IMG/VR virus record: IMGVR_UViG_2778260996_000006
Origin: a virus
Taxonomy: Duplodnaviria; Heunggongvirae; Uroviricota; Caudoviricetes
Reading direction: 5' to 3' (one strand)
DNA: 26,721 nt
Shown here: piece after piece, positions 1,368 to 23,283 of the stretch
How positions within the stretch are numbered: the first letter of the stretch is position 1
Layout of the letters: every line of letters begins with the position of its first letter
The notes under the pieces: model-generated
Seen by the model: the letters and a program-made list of their open reading frames with translations, nothing else
The model's database searches: none
What the model was told of the DNA's origin: nothing
Made by a program: the position numbers and the translations under genes

Positions 1368-2871
1368 CTATAATCCTCTCTGAAAAGCAGTGCTGGATGG
1401 CATATCCTGCGCACCGCGCGCTTCGCACATCATATCCATGTACCACGCCTGGCCCCTTGTATCGCCAGTGTACATAATCCCGCGCACAATATAAACGCCA
1501 TCCGTTGCGATGCTGGCAGGCTGCGATGTGGTGCCGCTTAGCGTAATATTTCCGTCCGTGTTCTGGTCGGTGATCTGCCCACCAGCCATAGCGATATCGT
1601 TGTTCGACAACGCGGTGCGATATACGGAAGCCTGATCCAGTTGAATGAGCCCATTAACCCGGATGTTCGGATTAATAAGCGCGCGAACGTTTACGCCGTT
1701 GCCGATGGTCTGCTGCGGCATGCCAATAAGCCCGGTAGCGCTGTTGAGCACAATCGCTTCGTGAACATATTCATTATTCGCCACCATCTGGCGCTGACCG
1801 TCTACGAATTGCCATGTTGCGCCACATTGCCCGGCTACGTTATCCATTAGATGCCGCGTCATGCCAAAGAGCACCCGCCCCCGGGGGAATACAGTAGCAG
1901 GCATTTCAGGCGTCAGGCCTTCGGTCGCACCTTTGGCTTCGAAGTCTTTCATCAGCGCACGGTTCACATCAGCGACCGTGTAACCGGCAGCCAGCGTCTG
2001 TGAGGTTATACTGGTGGCAAAAGCCAGATCAGTATCTGCTGCCTGAATCAGGACGTAGGAATCAACCGGACTGTCTTTTCCTGTAACCGAGTAGCGAATT
2101 TCACCGCTGAAAATCAGTCCGTAGTTGCGGCCATCACTCTGGCCCACGTCCGCCGCATCAACCTCCCGCACGATCCCGACGTCGCTTGCCGACACCTCCG
2201 GCGCGATACCGTCGTAACCCGCAATCAGACGCACTTTCGAAAACTCCCGCCCGGTGATTCGGTTCACAGTATCTGCCGAGAGGTTATAAATTTTGATAGT
2301 CCCTACCCGGGACGCGCTGCTGATGTTGAACCAGTCGATCGTAAAGGTCACTTTAAAATCACTTAGCTCAATTCCCTGACCGTTCCCGTCCACAAGCTGC
2401 ATTCACATCAGCGACCGTGTAACCGGCAGCCAGCGTCTGTGAGGTTATACTGGTGGCAAAAGCCAGATCAGTATCTGCTGCCTGAATCAGGACGTAGGAA
2501 TCAACCGGACTGTCTTTTCCTGTAACCGAGTAGCGAATTTCACCGCTGAAAATCAGTCCGTAGTTGCGGCCATCACTCTGGCCCACGTCCGCCGCATCAA
2601 CCTCCCGCACGATCCCGACGTCGCTTGCCGACACCTCCGGCGCGATACCGTCGTAACCCGCAATCAGACGCACTTTCGAAAACTCCCGCCCGGTGATTCG
2701 GTTCACAGTATCTGCCGAGAGGTTATAAATTTTGATAGTCCCTACCCGGGACGCGCTGCTGATGTTGAACCAGTCGATCGTAAAGGTCACTTTAAAATCA
2801 CTTAGCTCAATTCCCTGACCGTTCCCGTCCACAAGCTGCAGCTCGAAATGTCTCATCCAGTTCTGTGACAT
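1368..2871 (-). pseudogene. distal tail/baseplate-hub-like protein, reading frame broken by an internal 439-bp tandem duplication
   Basis: ORFs 2368..2871 and 1368..2402 carry the same 146-aa segment; removing one repeat copy restores a single ORF of about 354 aa. Confidence 0.6.
1963..2840. repeat. perfect tandem direct duplication, 2 x 439 bp (1963-2401 and 2402-2840)
   Basis: Base-by-base comparison shows identity over both copies; flanks differ (1962 g vs 2401 a; 2402 t vs 2841 g). Confidence 0.9.
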
Positions 2872-2873
2872 GC

Positions 2874-3176
2874 TTACTCCGTTGATACCAGTAAATGGCT
2901 GCGACCGCCCAGGTCAGTTTTTGTGGGGTAATCCTGTGTGTTGTCATCACAGACCACCACCAGCTTAAAACCAAGCCCCATACAGGCGTACTGCGCCAGC
3001 AGGTCAGCACCAGTGACGAGAGGAATACCGGAGATTACCGGCTCCCCTCTGTCGTTCTGCAGGTCCATAATCCAGTACAGATCGCGCCATATGATGCTAA
3101 TCCGCCAGGTAACACCACCCAGGACGATGCTGAACTGCTGGTTGTCCGCTGTCAGCGGAATTTCCTGAATTGCCAT
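2874..3176 (-). CDS. hypothetical tail protein (100 aa)
   Basis: ORF track; position downstream of tape measure in tightly packed operon. Confidence 0.45.
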   Translation of the reverse strand: MAIQEIPLTADNQQFSIVLGGVTWRISIIWRDLYWIMDLQNDRGEPVISGIPLVTGADLLAQYACMGLGFKLVVVCDDNTQDYPTKTDLGGRSHLLVSTE

Positions 3177-11694: not shown

Positions 11695-12915
11695 TTACCC
11701 TTTACGGTTTGCCCAGAATTCAGCGTTTTGTTTGTTCAGGGAAGCGATACTGGTCATGCCCATGTTTAGGCGCTGTGCATCGCCGGTGGTGGCGCGGGTG
11801 TTTCGCCCTTTGGCAATCTCAGACACGGCATTAAACGCCATGTCGACCGATTGTTTCGGCAATTTGCGGATATCCGCATCACCGACTATCTGGCGAACCA
11901 GCGTTTTGTCAGCGGAAGCCAGAACCTCGCGTTTGAACGCGGTCGGTTTCATCTTACGGCTCAGATCGATACCCGGAACAATAACTTCGGCACGCCAGGC
12001 TGAGTCACCAGTAATCGTGGTTTCCTCTTCATCGTCCTCGCCGTCACCGGTCGGATTATCGTCAGGCTTATTATCGTTATCGCCCGTGGCATTTCCTTCC
12101 AGCTTAGCCAGCAGGGCTTTCAGTAATGTTTTGAGGTCATCATCACTGTCGCCGGTTGGGCCTCCCCCCATCTCTGGTGCTTTGTCCGGTAGTGGTTGCT
12201 GCGGGGACAGGTTGATATTGAGATTAACGCCCTGCGGCAAATCCCCCTCATCTCCTGTAACCGATGCGGGAGCCGACTCCACCAGTTCGTTCATGGTGTC
12301 GGCATCTCCTGTCTTGATGGCCGCACGCATGCGGTTCCACCAGTTTTTCTTTTGATTTGCCATTGTGTCTCTGTCTCCAATTGCACAACGATTTCCGGCT
12401 CTGCCTTTAGGGACAAGAGCCACATGGTTTCCGGTAATATCGACCTGCTCAGCTTTACCTGGCTCGGTCTGCTCGTACTCCGCGTCATAGCCGCACGACA
12501 CTTCGCGCAGGCCATCTTCGATAAGCTGAATGGCGTTTTCGTCTTTGACGATAAGGTCAGCCAGCATCAAATCAGACTGCTCACCCGTCCCGCGCCGGAC
12601 ATTCTGGAGGTGCCCGACAGCAAGCTCTTTCCAGTTCTCGGGATTTACCAGCCGCACATTCCCGTTTTCATCTTCAGGATGCAGAATCGTGATGCTCATC
12701 CCTTCGAATGAGGCAAGCGTGGCCGGATGGAATACCTGCTCAGGAGAACGCGTGACGACTATTTCACCGAACTTATCGGGTTTCAGTTTTGGCAGGTCAT
12801 CAGCACCATAGAGCTGCTTACCTGTTCGTCCTATCGGCACGTCTCTGCACAGCAACGAGCCGTCAGCCAGCTGATAGCGGGTTTCCCCCAGCCGGGTATT
12901 GAAAAAATATTTCAT
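11695..12915 (-). CDS. prohead protease/scaffold-like protein (406 aa; XkdF-like N-domain plus acidic low-complexity region)
   Basis: Position between head-morphogenesis and capsid genes; acidic D/E/G-rich central linker typical of scaffolds; family by recollection. Confidence 0.55.
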   Translation of the reverse strand: MKYFFNTRLGETRYQLADGSLLCRDVPIGRTGKQLYGADDLPKLKPDKFGEIVVTRSPEQVFHPATLASFEGMSITILHPEDENGNVRLVNPENWKELAVGHLQNVRRGTGEQSDLMLADLIVKDENAIQLIEDGLREVSCGYDAEYEQTEPGKAEQVDITGNHVALVPKGRAGNRCAIGDRDTMANQKKNWWNRMRAAIKTGDADTMNELVESAPASVTGDEGDLPQGVNLNINLSPQQPLPDKAPEMGGGPTGDSDDDLKTLLKALLAKLEGNATGDNDNKPDDNPTGDGEDDEEETTITGDSAWRAEVIVPGIDLSRKMKPTAFKREVLASADKTLVRQIVGDADIRKLPKQSVDMAFNAVSEIAKGRNTRATTGDAQRLNMGMTSIASLNKQNAEFWANRKG

Positions 12916-19218: not shown

Positions 19219-19395
19219 TCAACTGAACTGCTGAATCACAGTAAGTAACATCTTCACTGTACAATTCTCGTTCAATCCGATGCCAAGTTGAGCCTTCATT
19301 GATGCGCCAATATTACCTTTGACCTGCAACGACAGGTCTGGGTACCTCTGTTCCATGAAGCTTTCAAATCTGTTGCGAACGCTGATCAGAGCCAT
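19219..19395 (-). CDS. small hypothetical ORF (58 aa) downstream of Q; coding status uncertain
   Basis: ATG 19395 with AAGGGA RBS 31 nt after Q stop; overlaps a second open frame (19055..19264) with no ATG start. Confidence 0.3.
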   Translation of the reverse strand: MALISVRNRFESFMEQRYPDLSLQVKGNIGASMKAQLGIGLNENCTVKMLLTVIQQFS

Positions 19396-19426
19396 CTGGT
19401 TCCCTTACGTGATTGATTGCTGGATA

Positions 19427-19849
19427 TTATGCCGCCGAGCAGCTCCTACGCAAAGTCCTGATAGCCTGAGGCTTTGACTGAACCGACTGATCCATTTCGA
19501 GCACCACATCCAGCATGGCTAAGCAACCGTCAATAAATCCCTCTGCCGCCTGAAGCCTCTTCAGAACGTGGGTGTGAGATACGCCGAGCTTCTCACCCAT
19601 CGCCCGCACGGGCATGGCCTGGACGTAATGCCACTCAAGGAGCGTGCACAGATACGGATCTTTTTTCTTCAGGCAGCTCATAGCGGAGTTGATGATAAGA
19701 CCGTCATTGTCACTGCATTTCAGCCTTCCAGACTGCGTCGCGGGTAGCAGATTCTTAAACCCGGCTGCAACAGGAGGAAAGTAGACGCTACCACCTTCAC
19801 TCGCTGCCCAGCCACCCCAGCGCTCTAAAACCTGTTGAATATTACGCAT
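19427..19849 (-). CDS. Q: late-gene antiterminator Q (140 aa)
   Basis: Close resemblance to enterobacterial prophage Q/QuuD proteins as recalled (QQVLERWGGWAA..., VAAGFKNLL, LKRLQAAEGFIDG); positioned upstream of lysis genes. Confidence 0.85.
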   Translation of the reverse strand: MRNIQQVLERWGGWAASEGGSVYFPPVAAGFKNLLPATQSGRLKCSDNDGLIINSAMSCLKKKDPYLCTLLEWHYVQAMPVRAMGEKLGVSHTHVLKRLQAAEGFIDGCLAMLDVVLEMDQSVQSKPQAIRTLRRSCSAA

Positions 19850-19978
19850 AGCTCTGACCTCTACGTTTTGCTACGAAAAAATTTTCTGAGAACCACGTCT
19901 GTTTATCCGTGGGTGTGGATAACGCAGTTCCGATTCGCTTATTACACGCTGTTATGTGCAAAAAATTCCTTGTTCGGC

Positions 19979-20150
19979 CTGTACCAATCTGTACCCACCT
20001 GTACCAGCTCTTTTCAAACCTTTTCCCCAAGCGACTTATATATATATATGGGGTTCTTAGTAATTAGGTTGGTACAGATGGTACAGTTGGTACTGACCTT
20101 TAAATTCAATTAGTTAAAATGTACCAACCTCTATTTTGAGGCTGGTACAG
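19979..20150. promoter_or_regulatory. putative replication origin: CTGTACC/GGTACAG iterons flanking a (TA)n tract
   Basis: Three CTGTACC at 10-bp phase (19979, 19989, 19999), TATATATATATAT at 20037-20049, three GGTAC(A/T)G at 9-bp phase (20071, 20080, 20089), further copies at 20120 and 20144. Confidence 0.45.
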
Positions 20151-22323
20151 GTTGGGACACCGCCTCAAAAATTCGAGTCATTTTCCCCCCAATTCGCCTT
20201 TGGGCACGCTTATACCCGCAATTTTGCAAAACATTACTAATTCGCATTTCTTCGCGTTTTCCGATGCGGTCAGGATTTAGCCCAATCGCATCACGCAAAA
20301 CATCACTTGCGCGTAAAAATTCGCAATTTCGCGGAAGTTCATTAGTCATCAGGTCTGGCGTGTCGAGCCATTTCTCTACCGTTTCAAGCCAAGCATCCTT
20401 GATGGTGTACTGTTCATGGACACTCGCTGCCAGTTGTTCAGCCTCACGGAACTGGATACCCCCCAGACGCTGAAACACCTCACGAGCCTCAGCCCAAAGT
20501 AAAAGGAGATCTCTTTTTATCGCTTTCACGTCGACTTTCGACACTTCCACGGGGAGCCAGCGACGGTTACCAGTCTTGTCCGCAAGGAATTCGTCCTCAT
20601 TGGTGGTACCAACGAACACCAGGCGACGAGGAAACTGGGTGGCGAACTCCCGGTATTTCGGGATCCAGTTTTCGTGAGTACGCGTCACAAACGCTTTGAT
20701 TGACTCCAGCTCTTTGGTATTAAGTCCGCGCAGTTCACCAATCTCTGCCACCAGCCGACCACGCATTTTTCGAGCGAGATCATCGTCTTTTTCGGCAAAA
20801 GAGATTTCAGTAAAAAACGCAGGATCAGGGCTCAGTGCCTCCACTCCGGAAGACTTACCGCAGCCCTGCGGACCAACGAGGATCGGCACCATATCCGCTT
20901 TGATGCCTGGCTCCAGTACTCGCCCCGCCAACGCGGTCCACATGTACATAGACACCGCACGGGTATAAGGCGTGTCGGCTGTACCGAAGTGCGTATGGTA
21001 GAAACATTCGATGCGCGGCACGCCATCCCACTCCAGCCCGTTCAGCCAGGTAATCGCTGAATCGAATGGTTGTTCATCGGCTGCAAGTAACACCACATCG
21101 CGAATAAGTTCACGACCAACAGGTTTAAATCCCCGCTTTTCCATCGTGATGCGCAGGCGCGCATAATCCGCATCGGTGAATGCTCGCCATTGTCCGGATC
21201 CTGCAGAGGCAAACATGATTTCGTCGCGGAACTGGTCAAAGCGAATATCGATGTCCACAAAATCAGGGCGTACTACTGCTTTGGCTGCGTTGCTGATGGT
21301 TGCCTCGATACGCCCCCATTTATCACGCTCGAAAGCAGGCAGCGGTAAAGGTTCCGCCACTTCGGTGCTGGTCAGATCTTCGAAATCGTCGTTGCGGATC
21401 CCGATGGCATTAAGGAAATCTCCGTCATCACGATGCGCACAACTGGCATGCAGGCATTTAAAATGCCCCTGCTCAAAGCCCGCGGTTCCCGCAGGAAAAT
21501 AAGCTGTGCTTGTTGGATCGCCCCCGCTACTGTGGCCGTCTTCAAACGGACAGCGGATATATCGTTCACCATTTGCGCCATCCAGCAGCGTCCAGCCATT
21601 GGCATCAAGATATTCAGCTGTATCATCCGTCGCGCCGGGCGTGAATGCTGATCGGTCGCGCATCTTCGTGTTGCCCGCTTCGGTGGTTACCGACACAGGG
21701 AGTTGTTCAGCCAGGCGCTGCCACAGCGTTTCAAGCTGCTCACCAGTAATAGCCGGAGGTTCATCCGGCAAACCACCGTCCCATTCAATACGCGCGCCGC
21801 TGCTGTGCGTACCACAGGCAACGAACTGCTGCCCGTTCGCCAGCAACTCGATAATGCCCATATCCCCCGCCAGGCGATGGATACGCTTACAGAAATCACC
21901 ATCAACGGCCAGCAGATACAGACACTTATTACTGTTTGCTCGCCAGCGTCGCGGCGGCAACTCCCCCAGAAGTTGCACAAGCGTTTTGCGAATATCTGCC
22001 TGAATGTCTTCATCTTCGCTATCGCAGTCCAGCGCCAGCCAGCCATGGCCTGTACGCACGCAGATGCCATAATCCGGTTCATTCGACCAGCGGGCAAAAT
22101 CATGCTCAGTAACAACATACCCGGTCCATTGAGCAATACCGGTGACCTGGCGGTCCCGGTTATAGCGACTTGGCGTCTTACCCAGCGCTTTCAGTTTACT
22201 ATCAGGGGATATGGTCGCACCGGGGTTACATACAACTGGGAGAAGATGATCAGTTCTCCCCAATACCAGGTCGAAATGAAACCACTCATCAGGCGTAGCT
22301 CCCCATGGTTTGCTATCGGACAT
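20131..22323 (-). CDS. replication primase/helicase, P4-alpha-like (730 aa)
   Basis: N-terminal primase-like region and C-terminal P-loop (GPQGCGKSS) with D5/P4-type NTPase features; adjacent to the iteron array. Confidence 0.75.
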   Translation of the reverse strand: MSDSKPWGATPDEWFHFDLVLGRTDHLLPVVCNPGATISPDSKLKALGKTPSRYNRDRQVTGIAQWTGYVVTEHDFARWSNEPDYGICVRTGHGWLALDCDSEDEDIQADIRKTLVQLLGELPPRRWRANSNKCLYLLAVDGDFCKRIHRLAGDMGIIELLANGQQFVACGTHSSGARIEWDGGLPDEPPAITGEQLETLWQRLAEQLPVSVTTEAGNTKMRDRSAFTPGATDDTAEYLDANGWTLLDGANGERYIRCPFEDGHSSGGDPTSTAYFPAGTAGFEQGHFKCLHASCAHRDDGDFLNAIGIRNDDFEDLTSTEVAEPLPLPAFERDKWGRIEATISNAAKAVVRPDFVDIDIRFDQFRDEIMFASAGSGQWRAFTDADYARLRITMEKRGFKPVGRELIRDVVLLAADEQPFDSAITWLNGLEWDGVPRIECFYHTHFGTADTPYTRAVSMYMWTALAGRVLEPGIKADMVPILVGPQGCGKSSGVEALSPDPAFFTEISFAEKDDDLARKMRGRLVAEIGELRGLNTKELESIKAFVTRTHENWIPKYREFATQFPRRLVFVGTTNEDEFLADKTGNRRWLPVEVSKVDVKAIKRDLLLLWAEAREVFQRLGGIQFREAEQLAASVHEQYTIKDAWLETVEKWLDTPDLMTNELPRNCEFLRASDVLRDAIGLNPDRIGKREEMRISNVLQNCGYKRAQRRIGGKMTRIFEAVSQPVPASK

Positions 22324-22326
22324 GGG

Positions 22327-22539
22327 TTAAGCCTTTTTATCGTTTTGTGAGCCATACAACAGCCAATTAGGGTCGCAATCCAATGCTATAGACATTTCAA
22401 GAAGATAACGTGGCCGAGCAATAACACCACTTTCAATTCTGTTTATTGCCTGCTGGCTCACTCCTGTGAGCTCAGCCAACGTAACTTGCGTCATTTTGAG
22501 TTCTTTACGTCGTTCTTTTACTCGGGTCGCTAAGGTCAT
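22327..22539 (-). CDS. cro: Cro-like HTH repressor (70 aa)
   Basis: Start trimmed to ATG 22539 (GAGGTGA 7 nt upstream); XRE-type HTH; divergent from CI; about 60% identical to the CI N-terminal domain. Confidence 0.8.
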   Translation of the reverse strand: MTLATRVKERRKELKMTQVTLAELTGVSQQAINRIESGVIARPRYLLEMSIALDCDPNWLLYGSQNDKKA

Positions 22540-22659
22540 TGCTTTCACCTCATACAATTTTAGTGGTATTTAGCAACAACAAATGAGGTTTGTCAAATAC
22601 AACAAAAATTGTTTTTAATGTGGGTATACACATTAATACAACCCAGAAGGACTAATCCC
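22540..22659. promoter_or_regulatory. cro/cI divergent promoter-operator region (OR-like)
   Basis: Palindrome TTAATGTG-N6-CACATTAA at 22615-22636; repeated ATACAA-N6-T(T/G)GT(A/T)T sites at 22552-22569 and 22597-22614. Confidence 0.5.
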
Positions 22660-23283
22660 ATGTCTCTCGCAGCCCGTTTTAAAGCACGTCGTTTGGAATT
22701 AGGAATGACTCAAGTGGAAGTAGCGAATTCTGCAGGGGTTAGCCAACAATCCATAGAATCCATCGAAAGTGGACGAACCAGAAAGCCACGCAATCTTCTG
22801 GATCTGGCTAAGGCCTTGAAATGTAGCCCAGACTGGCTACTGAACGGTAAAAATATTATGCCTCTCGCGGAGATAAGTACCAGACGCATACCTATATTAA
22901 GTTACGTTCAGGCAGGAGAGCTTACAGAAGCAAGAGACATAACAGATCTGACAGGGGAATTTGAATATATTTTGGCAGACTCTGACATTCCAGAAACATG
23001 CTTCGCATTACGTATTGATGGCGACAGCATGCAACCAGAGTTTAAAGAAGGAGACATTGTTATCATCGATCCTGATCTATGTCCTGCACCAGGGGAGTTT
23101 GTTGTCGCCAAAAACGACGGTCACGAAGCTACATTTAAAAAATACCGTCCATTAGGAATCGGCATCGACGACTTTGAATTAATCCCCCTAAATCCTGATT
23201 ACCCTATTTTTCGTAGTGCAGATATGAACTTACAGATCATAGGTGTAATGATCGAACACCGTATTTACCGCCGTAAACGTTAG
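22660..23283 (+). CDS. cI: CI-type prophage repressor (HTH + S24 LexA-like peptidase)
   Basis: Start trimmed to ATG 22660 (AAGGA RBS); N-terminal HTH; Ala-Gly site (VQAGEL); Ser (GDSM) and Lys (ATFKKY) catalytic dyad. Confidence 0.9.
   Translation: MSLAARFKARRLELGMTQVEVANSAGVSQQSIESIESGRTRKPRNLLDLAKALKCSPDWLLNGKNIMPLAEISTRRIPILSYVQAGELTEARDITDLTGEFEYILADSDIPETCFALRIDGDSMQPEFKEGDIVIIDPDLCPAPGEFVVAKNDGHEATFKKYRPLGIGIDDFELIPLNPDYPIFRSADMNLQIIGVMIEHRIYRRKR

Follow-up and report, generated by a model that had tools for sequence, protein, structure and literature searches.

Which protein reads a dense array of short repeats lying around an alternating TA tract at the end of a primase-helicase gene, and what is the array for? 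This question is raised by a stretch of DNA of 26,721 nucleotides (the window, by which we mean the whole stretch that was analysed). An E. coli prophage makes up the window; its sequence is matched at 100% identity in strain FDAARGOS_1059, where the prophage is integrated beside yfhL, and among 5426 complete E. coli genomes 104 contain the region. The minus strand of the window carries the rightward early operon, and holin, endolysin, terminase and structural genes come after the antiterminator gene Q. The genes around the array are the following:

22609-23283, opposite direction to the early operon: CI-like repressor
22327-22557, minus strand: Cro-like HTH gene
20131-22323, minus strand: putative initiator gene, 730 aa with fused primase, SF3 helicase and winged helix (from the open reading frame, Pfam and a structural model)
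19427-19849, minus strand: antiterminator Q, separated from the primase-helicase gene by a 281-bp gap

The leftward arm codes for DUF2800 and DUF2815 proteins, a family-A DNA polymerase, a VRR-NUC nuclease, a DEAD-box helicase and an integrase. It also contains a TIR-domain gene, located outside the window at 29841-30602 of the identical 40-kb prophage locus L001, amid the leftward replication genes and adjoining the DNA polymerase, which may be defence or counter-defence cargo. Two structural genes (1960-3023 and 11847-13066 of L001, about 1809-2872 and 11696-12915 of the window) are marked as frameshifted in RefSeq, so that this prophage copy may be defective in particle production.

The original prediction described eight copies of CTGTACC or its reverse complement GGTACAG within 19979-20150, a direct triplet at 10-bp spacing, an inverted triplet at 9-bp spacing and an alternating TA run of about 13 bp, all of which is borne out by the coordinates. 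Six exact copies lie in this interval. Those on the plus strand start at 19979, 19989 and 19999 and are thus spaced by exactly 10 bp, and those on the minus strand occupy 20071-20077, 20080-20086 (9-bp spacing) and 20144-20150. Allowing one mismatch, the 8-mer CTGTACCA adds copies at 20088-20095 (CAGTACCA), which makes up the minus-strand triplet, and at 20119-20126 (ATGTACCA); the third inverted copy is therefore one with a mismatch. A ninth, degenerate copy, TTGGGACA, is found at 20152-20159, so that the array of 19979-20160 comprises six exact copies, two with one mismatch and one degenerate copy. The TA run covers 20037-20049 (13 nt), and the GC content, roughly 0.45-0.6 in the flanks, falls to 0.32-0.37 over about 20000-20160.

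The clustering of the word is specific to this place. Exact copies of CTGTACC/GGTACAG number 11 in the window against 1.63 +/- 1.24 expected from shuffles, none of 100 shuffles of the window gave 11 copies, and the five copies outside the array are isolated, dispersed singles. A motif scan of the whole prophage, proposed at the outset as a check, gave the same picture, as TGTACC forms a single cluster in L001 (seven of 20 copies inside 200 bp) and no such cluster was seen at the second set of replication genes in the left arm.

Along the minus strand, the direction of transcription, the array is ordered as cluster A, spacer 1, cluster B, core and cluster C:

20119-20160, no strand assigned: cluster A, with TTGGGACA (20152-20159) and GGTACAG (20144-20150) in the gene, the stop codon at 20131-20133 and the opposing ATGTACCAACC at 20119-20129
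20096-20118, no strand assigned: AT-rich spacer 1, 23 nt, reading TTTTAACTAATTGAATTTAAAGGT on the minus strand, similar in most of the repeat types described below
20069-20095, minus strand: cluster B, three copies at 9-bp spacing, CAGTACCAA CTGTACCAT CTGTACCAA
20007-20068, no strand assigned: conserved core, 62 bp, holding the (TA)n tract 20037-20049, where melting is proposed to begin
19979-20006, plus strand: cluster C, three copies at 10-bp spacing, CTGTACCAAT CTGTACCCAC CTGTACCAGC, opposing cluster B across the core

Read on the minus strand, cluster A begins with two copies within the final codons, followed by the stop codon, a 6-nt loop and one reverse-facing copy. The array had been placed at the 3' end of the primase-helicase gene. 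It does adjoin this end, but it spans the stop codon, so that two copies fall inside the coding sequence, and reaches 152 bp past the stop, leaving about 130 bp between its end and Q.

We consider it very likely that the array is the lytic replication origin of the prophage and works with the primase-helicase gene that it overlaps. This reading is supported by a comparison of 81 loci, in which the layout is constant while the word shifts in step with the C-terminal wing of the protein, and by the structural homology of the primase-helicase to SaPI1 Rep, whose origin has a matching position and layout. The proposal of an iteron-type origin beside its initiator gene is thus strongly supported by comparison, and it is from these comparisons that we infer initiator binding, melting, loading and priming at the array. 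No significant single-strand DNA hairpin was found in the TA-tract core (z -0.87), so that a cruciform or hairpin origin is unsupported.

The primase-helicase contains a Prim-Pol domain at about aa 76-184 (Pfam PF09250, E=2e-9), which is the sole Pfam match in aa 1-350, and a VapE domain at aa 427-639 (Pfam VapE-like, E=2e-60). Its sole sequence match in the PDB is 7pds (E=7e-34). An AlphaFold (AF2) model of aa 380-730, built on an alignment of 100 homologues and without DNA, had a pLDDT of 91.6, whereas a model of aa 590-730 from a shallow 15-sequence alignment had a pLDDT of 49.6 and was left out of the fold comparison. The former predicts a C-terminal winged helix at about aa 644-721, with helices at 644-653, 672-680 and 689-701 and a beta-hairpin formed by 704-711 and 714-721. 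With the whole 351-aa model as query, the best Foldseek match was again 7pds, SaPI1 Rep with dsDNA (TMq 0.80, E 1.7e-22), followed by the helicase region of phage NrS-1, ASFV PrimPol and poxvirus D5/E5. A domain structure of P4 alpha was absent among the 50 matches listed.

SaPI Reps are self-loading initiator-helicases whose C-terminal winged helix reads short repeats directly downstream of rep; in the SaPI origin the repeats are divided equally between the two sides of an AT-rich centre, with at least two per side in opposite orientation, and binding and melting by Rep need no ATP (PMC9371898). Gram-negative PICIs share this origin layout, and the rep-ori segment of EcCICFT073 drives plasmid replication (PMC6092414). 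Compared with SaPI1 Rep, SaPI5 PriRep5, SaPIbov1 and EcCICFT073, the prophage locus has the same features. The protein combines an SF3 helicase with a C-terminal winged helix of the initiator type, as predicted from the sequence and Foldseek matches to 7pds and from the model; the putative origin is directly 3' of the rep gene, here spanning the stop codon 20131-20133; at least two opposed repeats flank the AT-rich region on each side, here three against three across the core; and the repeat word appears to be matched to the cognate Rep, here eight types against 29 protein tails. As in SaPI5 PriRep5, the helicase is fused to a primase. There are also differences. The repeats measure 9-10 bp here compared with 5-6 bp in the SaPI and PICI origins, two copies lie in coding sequence, a third cluster and a second AT-rich spacer are present, and the sequence identity between SaPI1 Rep and the window protein is only about 25%. 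Moreover, PICIs are satellites that have no virion genes and depend on a helper, whereas the present locus has terminase, portal, head, tail, baseplate, holin and endolysin genes, so that only the replicon type is shared with PICIs. We therefore describe the element as a probable SaPI/PICI-type Rep-ori replicon within a complete temperate phage, its replication activity being suggested by these likenesses.

The protein was initially likened to P4 alpha, which has a DnaG/Toprim-type primase and two separated repeat regions, ori and crr, with the word TGTTCACC; it is crr, not ori, that adjoins the alpha gene. The general plan of that comparison stands, in that both are single polypeptides with a primase, an SF3 helicase and a C-terminal repeat-reading domain, here a predicted winged helix. 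An SF3 helicase followed by a winged helix is also found in the SaPI Rep family and hence does not separate the P4 type from the SaPI type. What does not stand is the closer resemblance, as the N-terminal primase domain is of the Prim-Pol and not the Toprim/DnaG kind, and the 40-kb locus has a single TGTACC cluster in place of two sites (ori and crr). The comparison with P4, whose alpha protein and cognate site are mentioned alongside the PICIs (PMC6092414), is thus a loose one, and the P4 label is better replaced by that of the SaPI Rep family.

ORF904 of plasmid pRN1 likewise combines a Prim-Pol domain with an SF3 helicase and requires downstream sequence, the minimal replicon needing 166 bp downstream of orf904 (PMC4234260, PMC2777425). 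It differs in belonging to a crenarchaeal plasmid. To our knowledge, no covariation of repeats and wing has been described for pRN1. The lambda origin resembles the present array in its place in the rightward early operon after cro, in its phased repeats by an AT-rich stretch and in its tie to the initiator gene. It lies inside gene O, has four repeats of roughly 19 bp that are read by the N-terminal domain of O, and needs P and the host DnaB, whereas here the initiator itself would be both helicase and primase.

A scan of viral contigs yielded 80 further loci with 73-100% protein identity, so that 81 related loci were compared. All 81 have copies at the stop codon, the AT-rich spacer, the triplet with 9-bp spacing, the TA-tract core and three inverted copies, while their repeat words sort into eight types. 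The inverted pair at the stop codon is equivalent in all types, and so are the position and 9-bp spacing of cluster B, only its word differing by type. Around the TA tract, column identity among 11 representatives of the eight types amounts to 0.83-0.92.

In the prophage of the O103:H2 strain 12009 the flanks are almost base-for-base those of the window and the TA tract and core are retained, yet every copy reads CTGGAACC where the window has CTGTACC, at equal positions. The two primase-helicases are 98% identical, and their C-terminal halves differ only after residue 713, with GKMTRIFEAV in the window and GKKCKVWEPL in the O103:H2 protein. In the Yersinia phage YeP4 (72% DNA identity in the primase gene) the layout of the array matches with the word TAGACAACC, and a small HTH-like gene is found downstream of the array in place of Q. 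The early module is common to the prophage group and YeP4, and also occurs in APSE, BPP-1 and Bcep-type phages (PMC8579659). The arrangement persists even in a 59%-identical relative whose primase is a separate ORF, with TGCAACCAC and GTAACCAC directly after the stop codon, a 69-nt spacer and then inverted copies; its tail, VPAKVW, begins with V as in other GTAACC readers. The array was not seen in two more distant relatives, L084 (52% identity) and L085 (48% identity), so that the layout is not universal among VapE proteins. The VapE protein of L085 (1-2730) has no primase domain and lies behind an integrase and an AlpA-like gene, an order of genes reminiscent of small integrative islands or satellites; the DNA downstream of the VapE gene showed no repeat array.

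The repeat types correspond to the first residues of the protein tail that follows a conserved GK near the C-terminus:

CTGTACCAA: tail after GK begins MT
CTGTCCCAA: KM or KQ
CTGTAACCA: VQ or VS
CTGTATCCA: VL
CTGTTACCA: LM
CTGGAACCA: KC, KS or KR
CTAGACCAC: QI
CTAGACAAC: QQ

In detail, 29 distinct tails of eight residues map onto the eight repeat types with zero exceptions over the 81 loci, kinship between loci being ignored in this count, and the type is predictable from the first two tail residues. The fifth tail residue is F where position 7-8 of the repeat has A and W where it has C, in 81 of 81 loci. By contrast, the 24 residues before GK, which form a helix and the first wing strand, are common to up to five types. 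In the model the type-covarying residues coincide with the last strand of the wing:

20161-20184, minus strand: codons of MTRIFEAV (aa 714-721), last wing strand (E335-342 of the model), proposed specificity determinant

This suggests that the residues just after GK, MTRIFEAV in the window, mainly decide which repeat word is read. Since the usual recognition helix of the winged helix is nearly invariant here, reading via the wing would be unusual, and it is the covariation together with a model built without DNA that points to the wing strand.

As no more than about 1-25 bp separate the tail codons from the nearest copy of the repeat, some co-inheritance is to be expected, and the covariation could be due in part to their physical linkage in recombination cassettes. 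The case for a functional tie between tail and word beyond such linkage nevertheless appears strong, if not airtight, for three reasons. First, type-specific variation is discontinuous along the locus. The codons of the MTRIFEAV segment show an identity of 0.86 within and 0.44 between types, the largest gap (0.42), and the difference between within-type and between-type identity is 0.30-0.34 in clusters A, B and C (between types 0.57-0.58), 0.15 in the core between clusters B and C (between types 0.76), 0.11 in the helix codons upstream of GK and 0.07 in the DNA beyond cluster C. The AT-rich spacer 1 also has a difference of 0.30, so that not all spacers are type-neutral. Second, all six to nine copies of an origin carry one word, which calls for selection against a single reader. 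Third, the types do not follow the sequence background, as L073, with only 82% identity to the window in the C-terminal 300 residues, matches it in tail and word, while L018, at 98% identity in this stretch, has a different repeat type.

Three of the loci, L031, L035 and L048, have the tail VLKVW and hybrid origins, the segment concerned extending from about 70 nt ahead of the primase stop codon to 330 nt past it. Their copies at the stop codon are of the GTAACCA type, and those around the TA core are of the GTATCCA type or a mixture of both; in L048, with the tail VLKVWTTT, the two words occur in equal counts. This suggests a relaxed discrimination between two words or a recent recombination within the origin.

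The covariation also bears on the alternative, mentioned already in the original prediction, of a regulator array upstream of Q. In this reading the repeats would be operators for Cro, the CI-like repressor, Q or a host factor rather than sites for the primase-helicase, which we regard as very improbable. Cro and CI do differ between the window and the O103 prophage, as does the repeat type, and a perfect DnaA box is situated 57 bp from the array. However, one Cro variant, MTLATRLKERRKELKMTQVT, is found with seven repeat types, and one repeat type can go with several Cro types, so that this cross-tabulation led us to reject Cro or CI as the repeat binder; the cI-cro intergenic region of the window is also devoid of CTGTACC. 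The array follows the primase gene whether one of two unrelated Q families or the HTH-like gene of YeP4 comes next, one downstream Q module being found with at least three repeat types and another Q family with at least five. A single host factor does not explain eight words within enterobacteria, and the DnaA box is not conserved along with the array.

This box, TTATCCACA at 19914-19922 on the minus strand, is the sole perfect DnaA box of the window and has an inverted partner, TTATCCGTG, at 19903-19911. Situated upstream of Q, 57 bp past cluster C, the box is kept in the O103-type prophage and degenerate in L031 and L035. We rejected it as a part of the origin, since relatives that share the scaffold do not retain it; its distribution suggests that it is part of the module upstream of Q rather than of the origin cassette.

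The inverted pair at the stop codon raises another possibility, namely that the main role of the array is to control transcription at the junction of the replication gene and Q, the pair acting as an intrinsic terminator, or a repeat-bound protein blocking RNA polymerase, and thereby timing late expression. In the RNA of the minus strand the inner inverted pair folds into a hairpin of 12 bp (-23.5 kcal/mol, z -4.1) with UUUU after it, a terminator-like structure at 20149-20120 of the coding strand (TTTT in the DNA) that is located between the early genes and Q; YeP4 and several further types have the T run too. The T run is absent, though the inverted pair is retained, in three of the eight types (GAA, AGACA in L047, and AGACC), and a terminator leaves unexplained both the six further phased copies around the conserved TA core and the change of all copies in step with the protein tail; in addition, the array stays with the primase gene whichever gene is downstream. 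We judge this unlikely as the main function. Given the types without a U run, termination is taken as a possible side role alongside that of an origin, in which the stop-codon hairpin may dampen read-through into Q. Neither an Rfam scan of 19300-20700, with one sub-threshold chance match within Q, nor a sigma-70 scan of the array, with no promoter on the coding strand and a lone match at chance level on the plus strand, gave anything relevant.

Phased repeats around AT-rich DNA are also known from plasmid centromeres and some pac sites, which would make the array a partition, packaging or recombination site. Here, the partner that covaries with the repeats is a replication protein, and the prophage is integrated and has its tyrosine integrase at the opposite end. 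About 3 kb, including the lysis genes, separates the array from the terminase genes, and no partition ATPase or centromere-binding protein is among the annotated product names of the 40-kb locus L001. Such a role is extremely improbable.

Taking the array as a replication origin, the following course of events can be proposed. Induction would start rightward early transcription on the minus strand, yielding Cro and then the 730-aa primase-helicase, whose C-terminal winged helix would bind the 9-10-bp repeats (CTGTACCAA in the window phage). Two opposing triplets flank the 62-bp core with its (TA)6-7, and a third group straddles the stop codon beside the second AT-rich spacer. Two hexamers might form on the opposing triplets and melt the TA core without a separate loader, then, acting as SF3 helicases, thread onto the single strands. 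Their Prim-Pol domain would prime, and the family-A polymerase of the left arm would elongate thereafter.

More tentatively, and with somewhat less than even confidence, we propose a swappable code in which two or three residues on a single face of the last wing strand, at positions 1-2 and 5 after GK, determine both the central 3-4 bp of the repeat and its position 7-8, the recognition helix being constant, giving at least eight orthogonal origin-initiator pairs on one scaffold. If this holds, related prophages, or prophages and satellites, could replicate in one cell without cross-talk or hijacking, and a shared ancestry of the PICI replicons and the phage module would be suggested. A literature search found no description of a replication origin for this phage group. 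The present analysis locates a likely origin for a widespread, unstudied group of enterobacterial temperate phages, and what it adds are the eight specificity types and a candidate wing code. A layout thought peculiar to SaPI/PICI satellites is seen here in a full phage, which bears on the ancestry of satellite replicons. Moreover, eight word types on one scaffold together with near-isogenic cassette pairs constitute a ready system for dissecting how a wing reads DNA, and the natural series of types could be used for building orthogonal replicons.

Two Klebsiella pneumoniae proteins annotated as antitermination protein Q (P0011 and P0019, PF06323) align to 35-78% of a 141-aa query from the C-terminus of the primase-helicase, which implies either a fusion that deleted the origin or miscalled ORFs. 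Just outside cluster C, at about 19957-19976 of the window (columns 251-270 of alignment A3), the block GAACA(A/T)G(G/T)AATTT(T/A)TTGCA is kept in all repeat types with a column identity of 0.74-0.82, and it could be either a component of the origin or a signal of the downstream gene.
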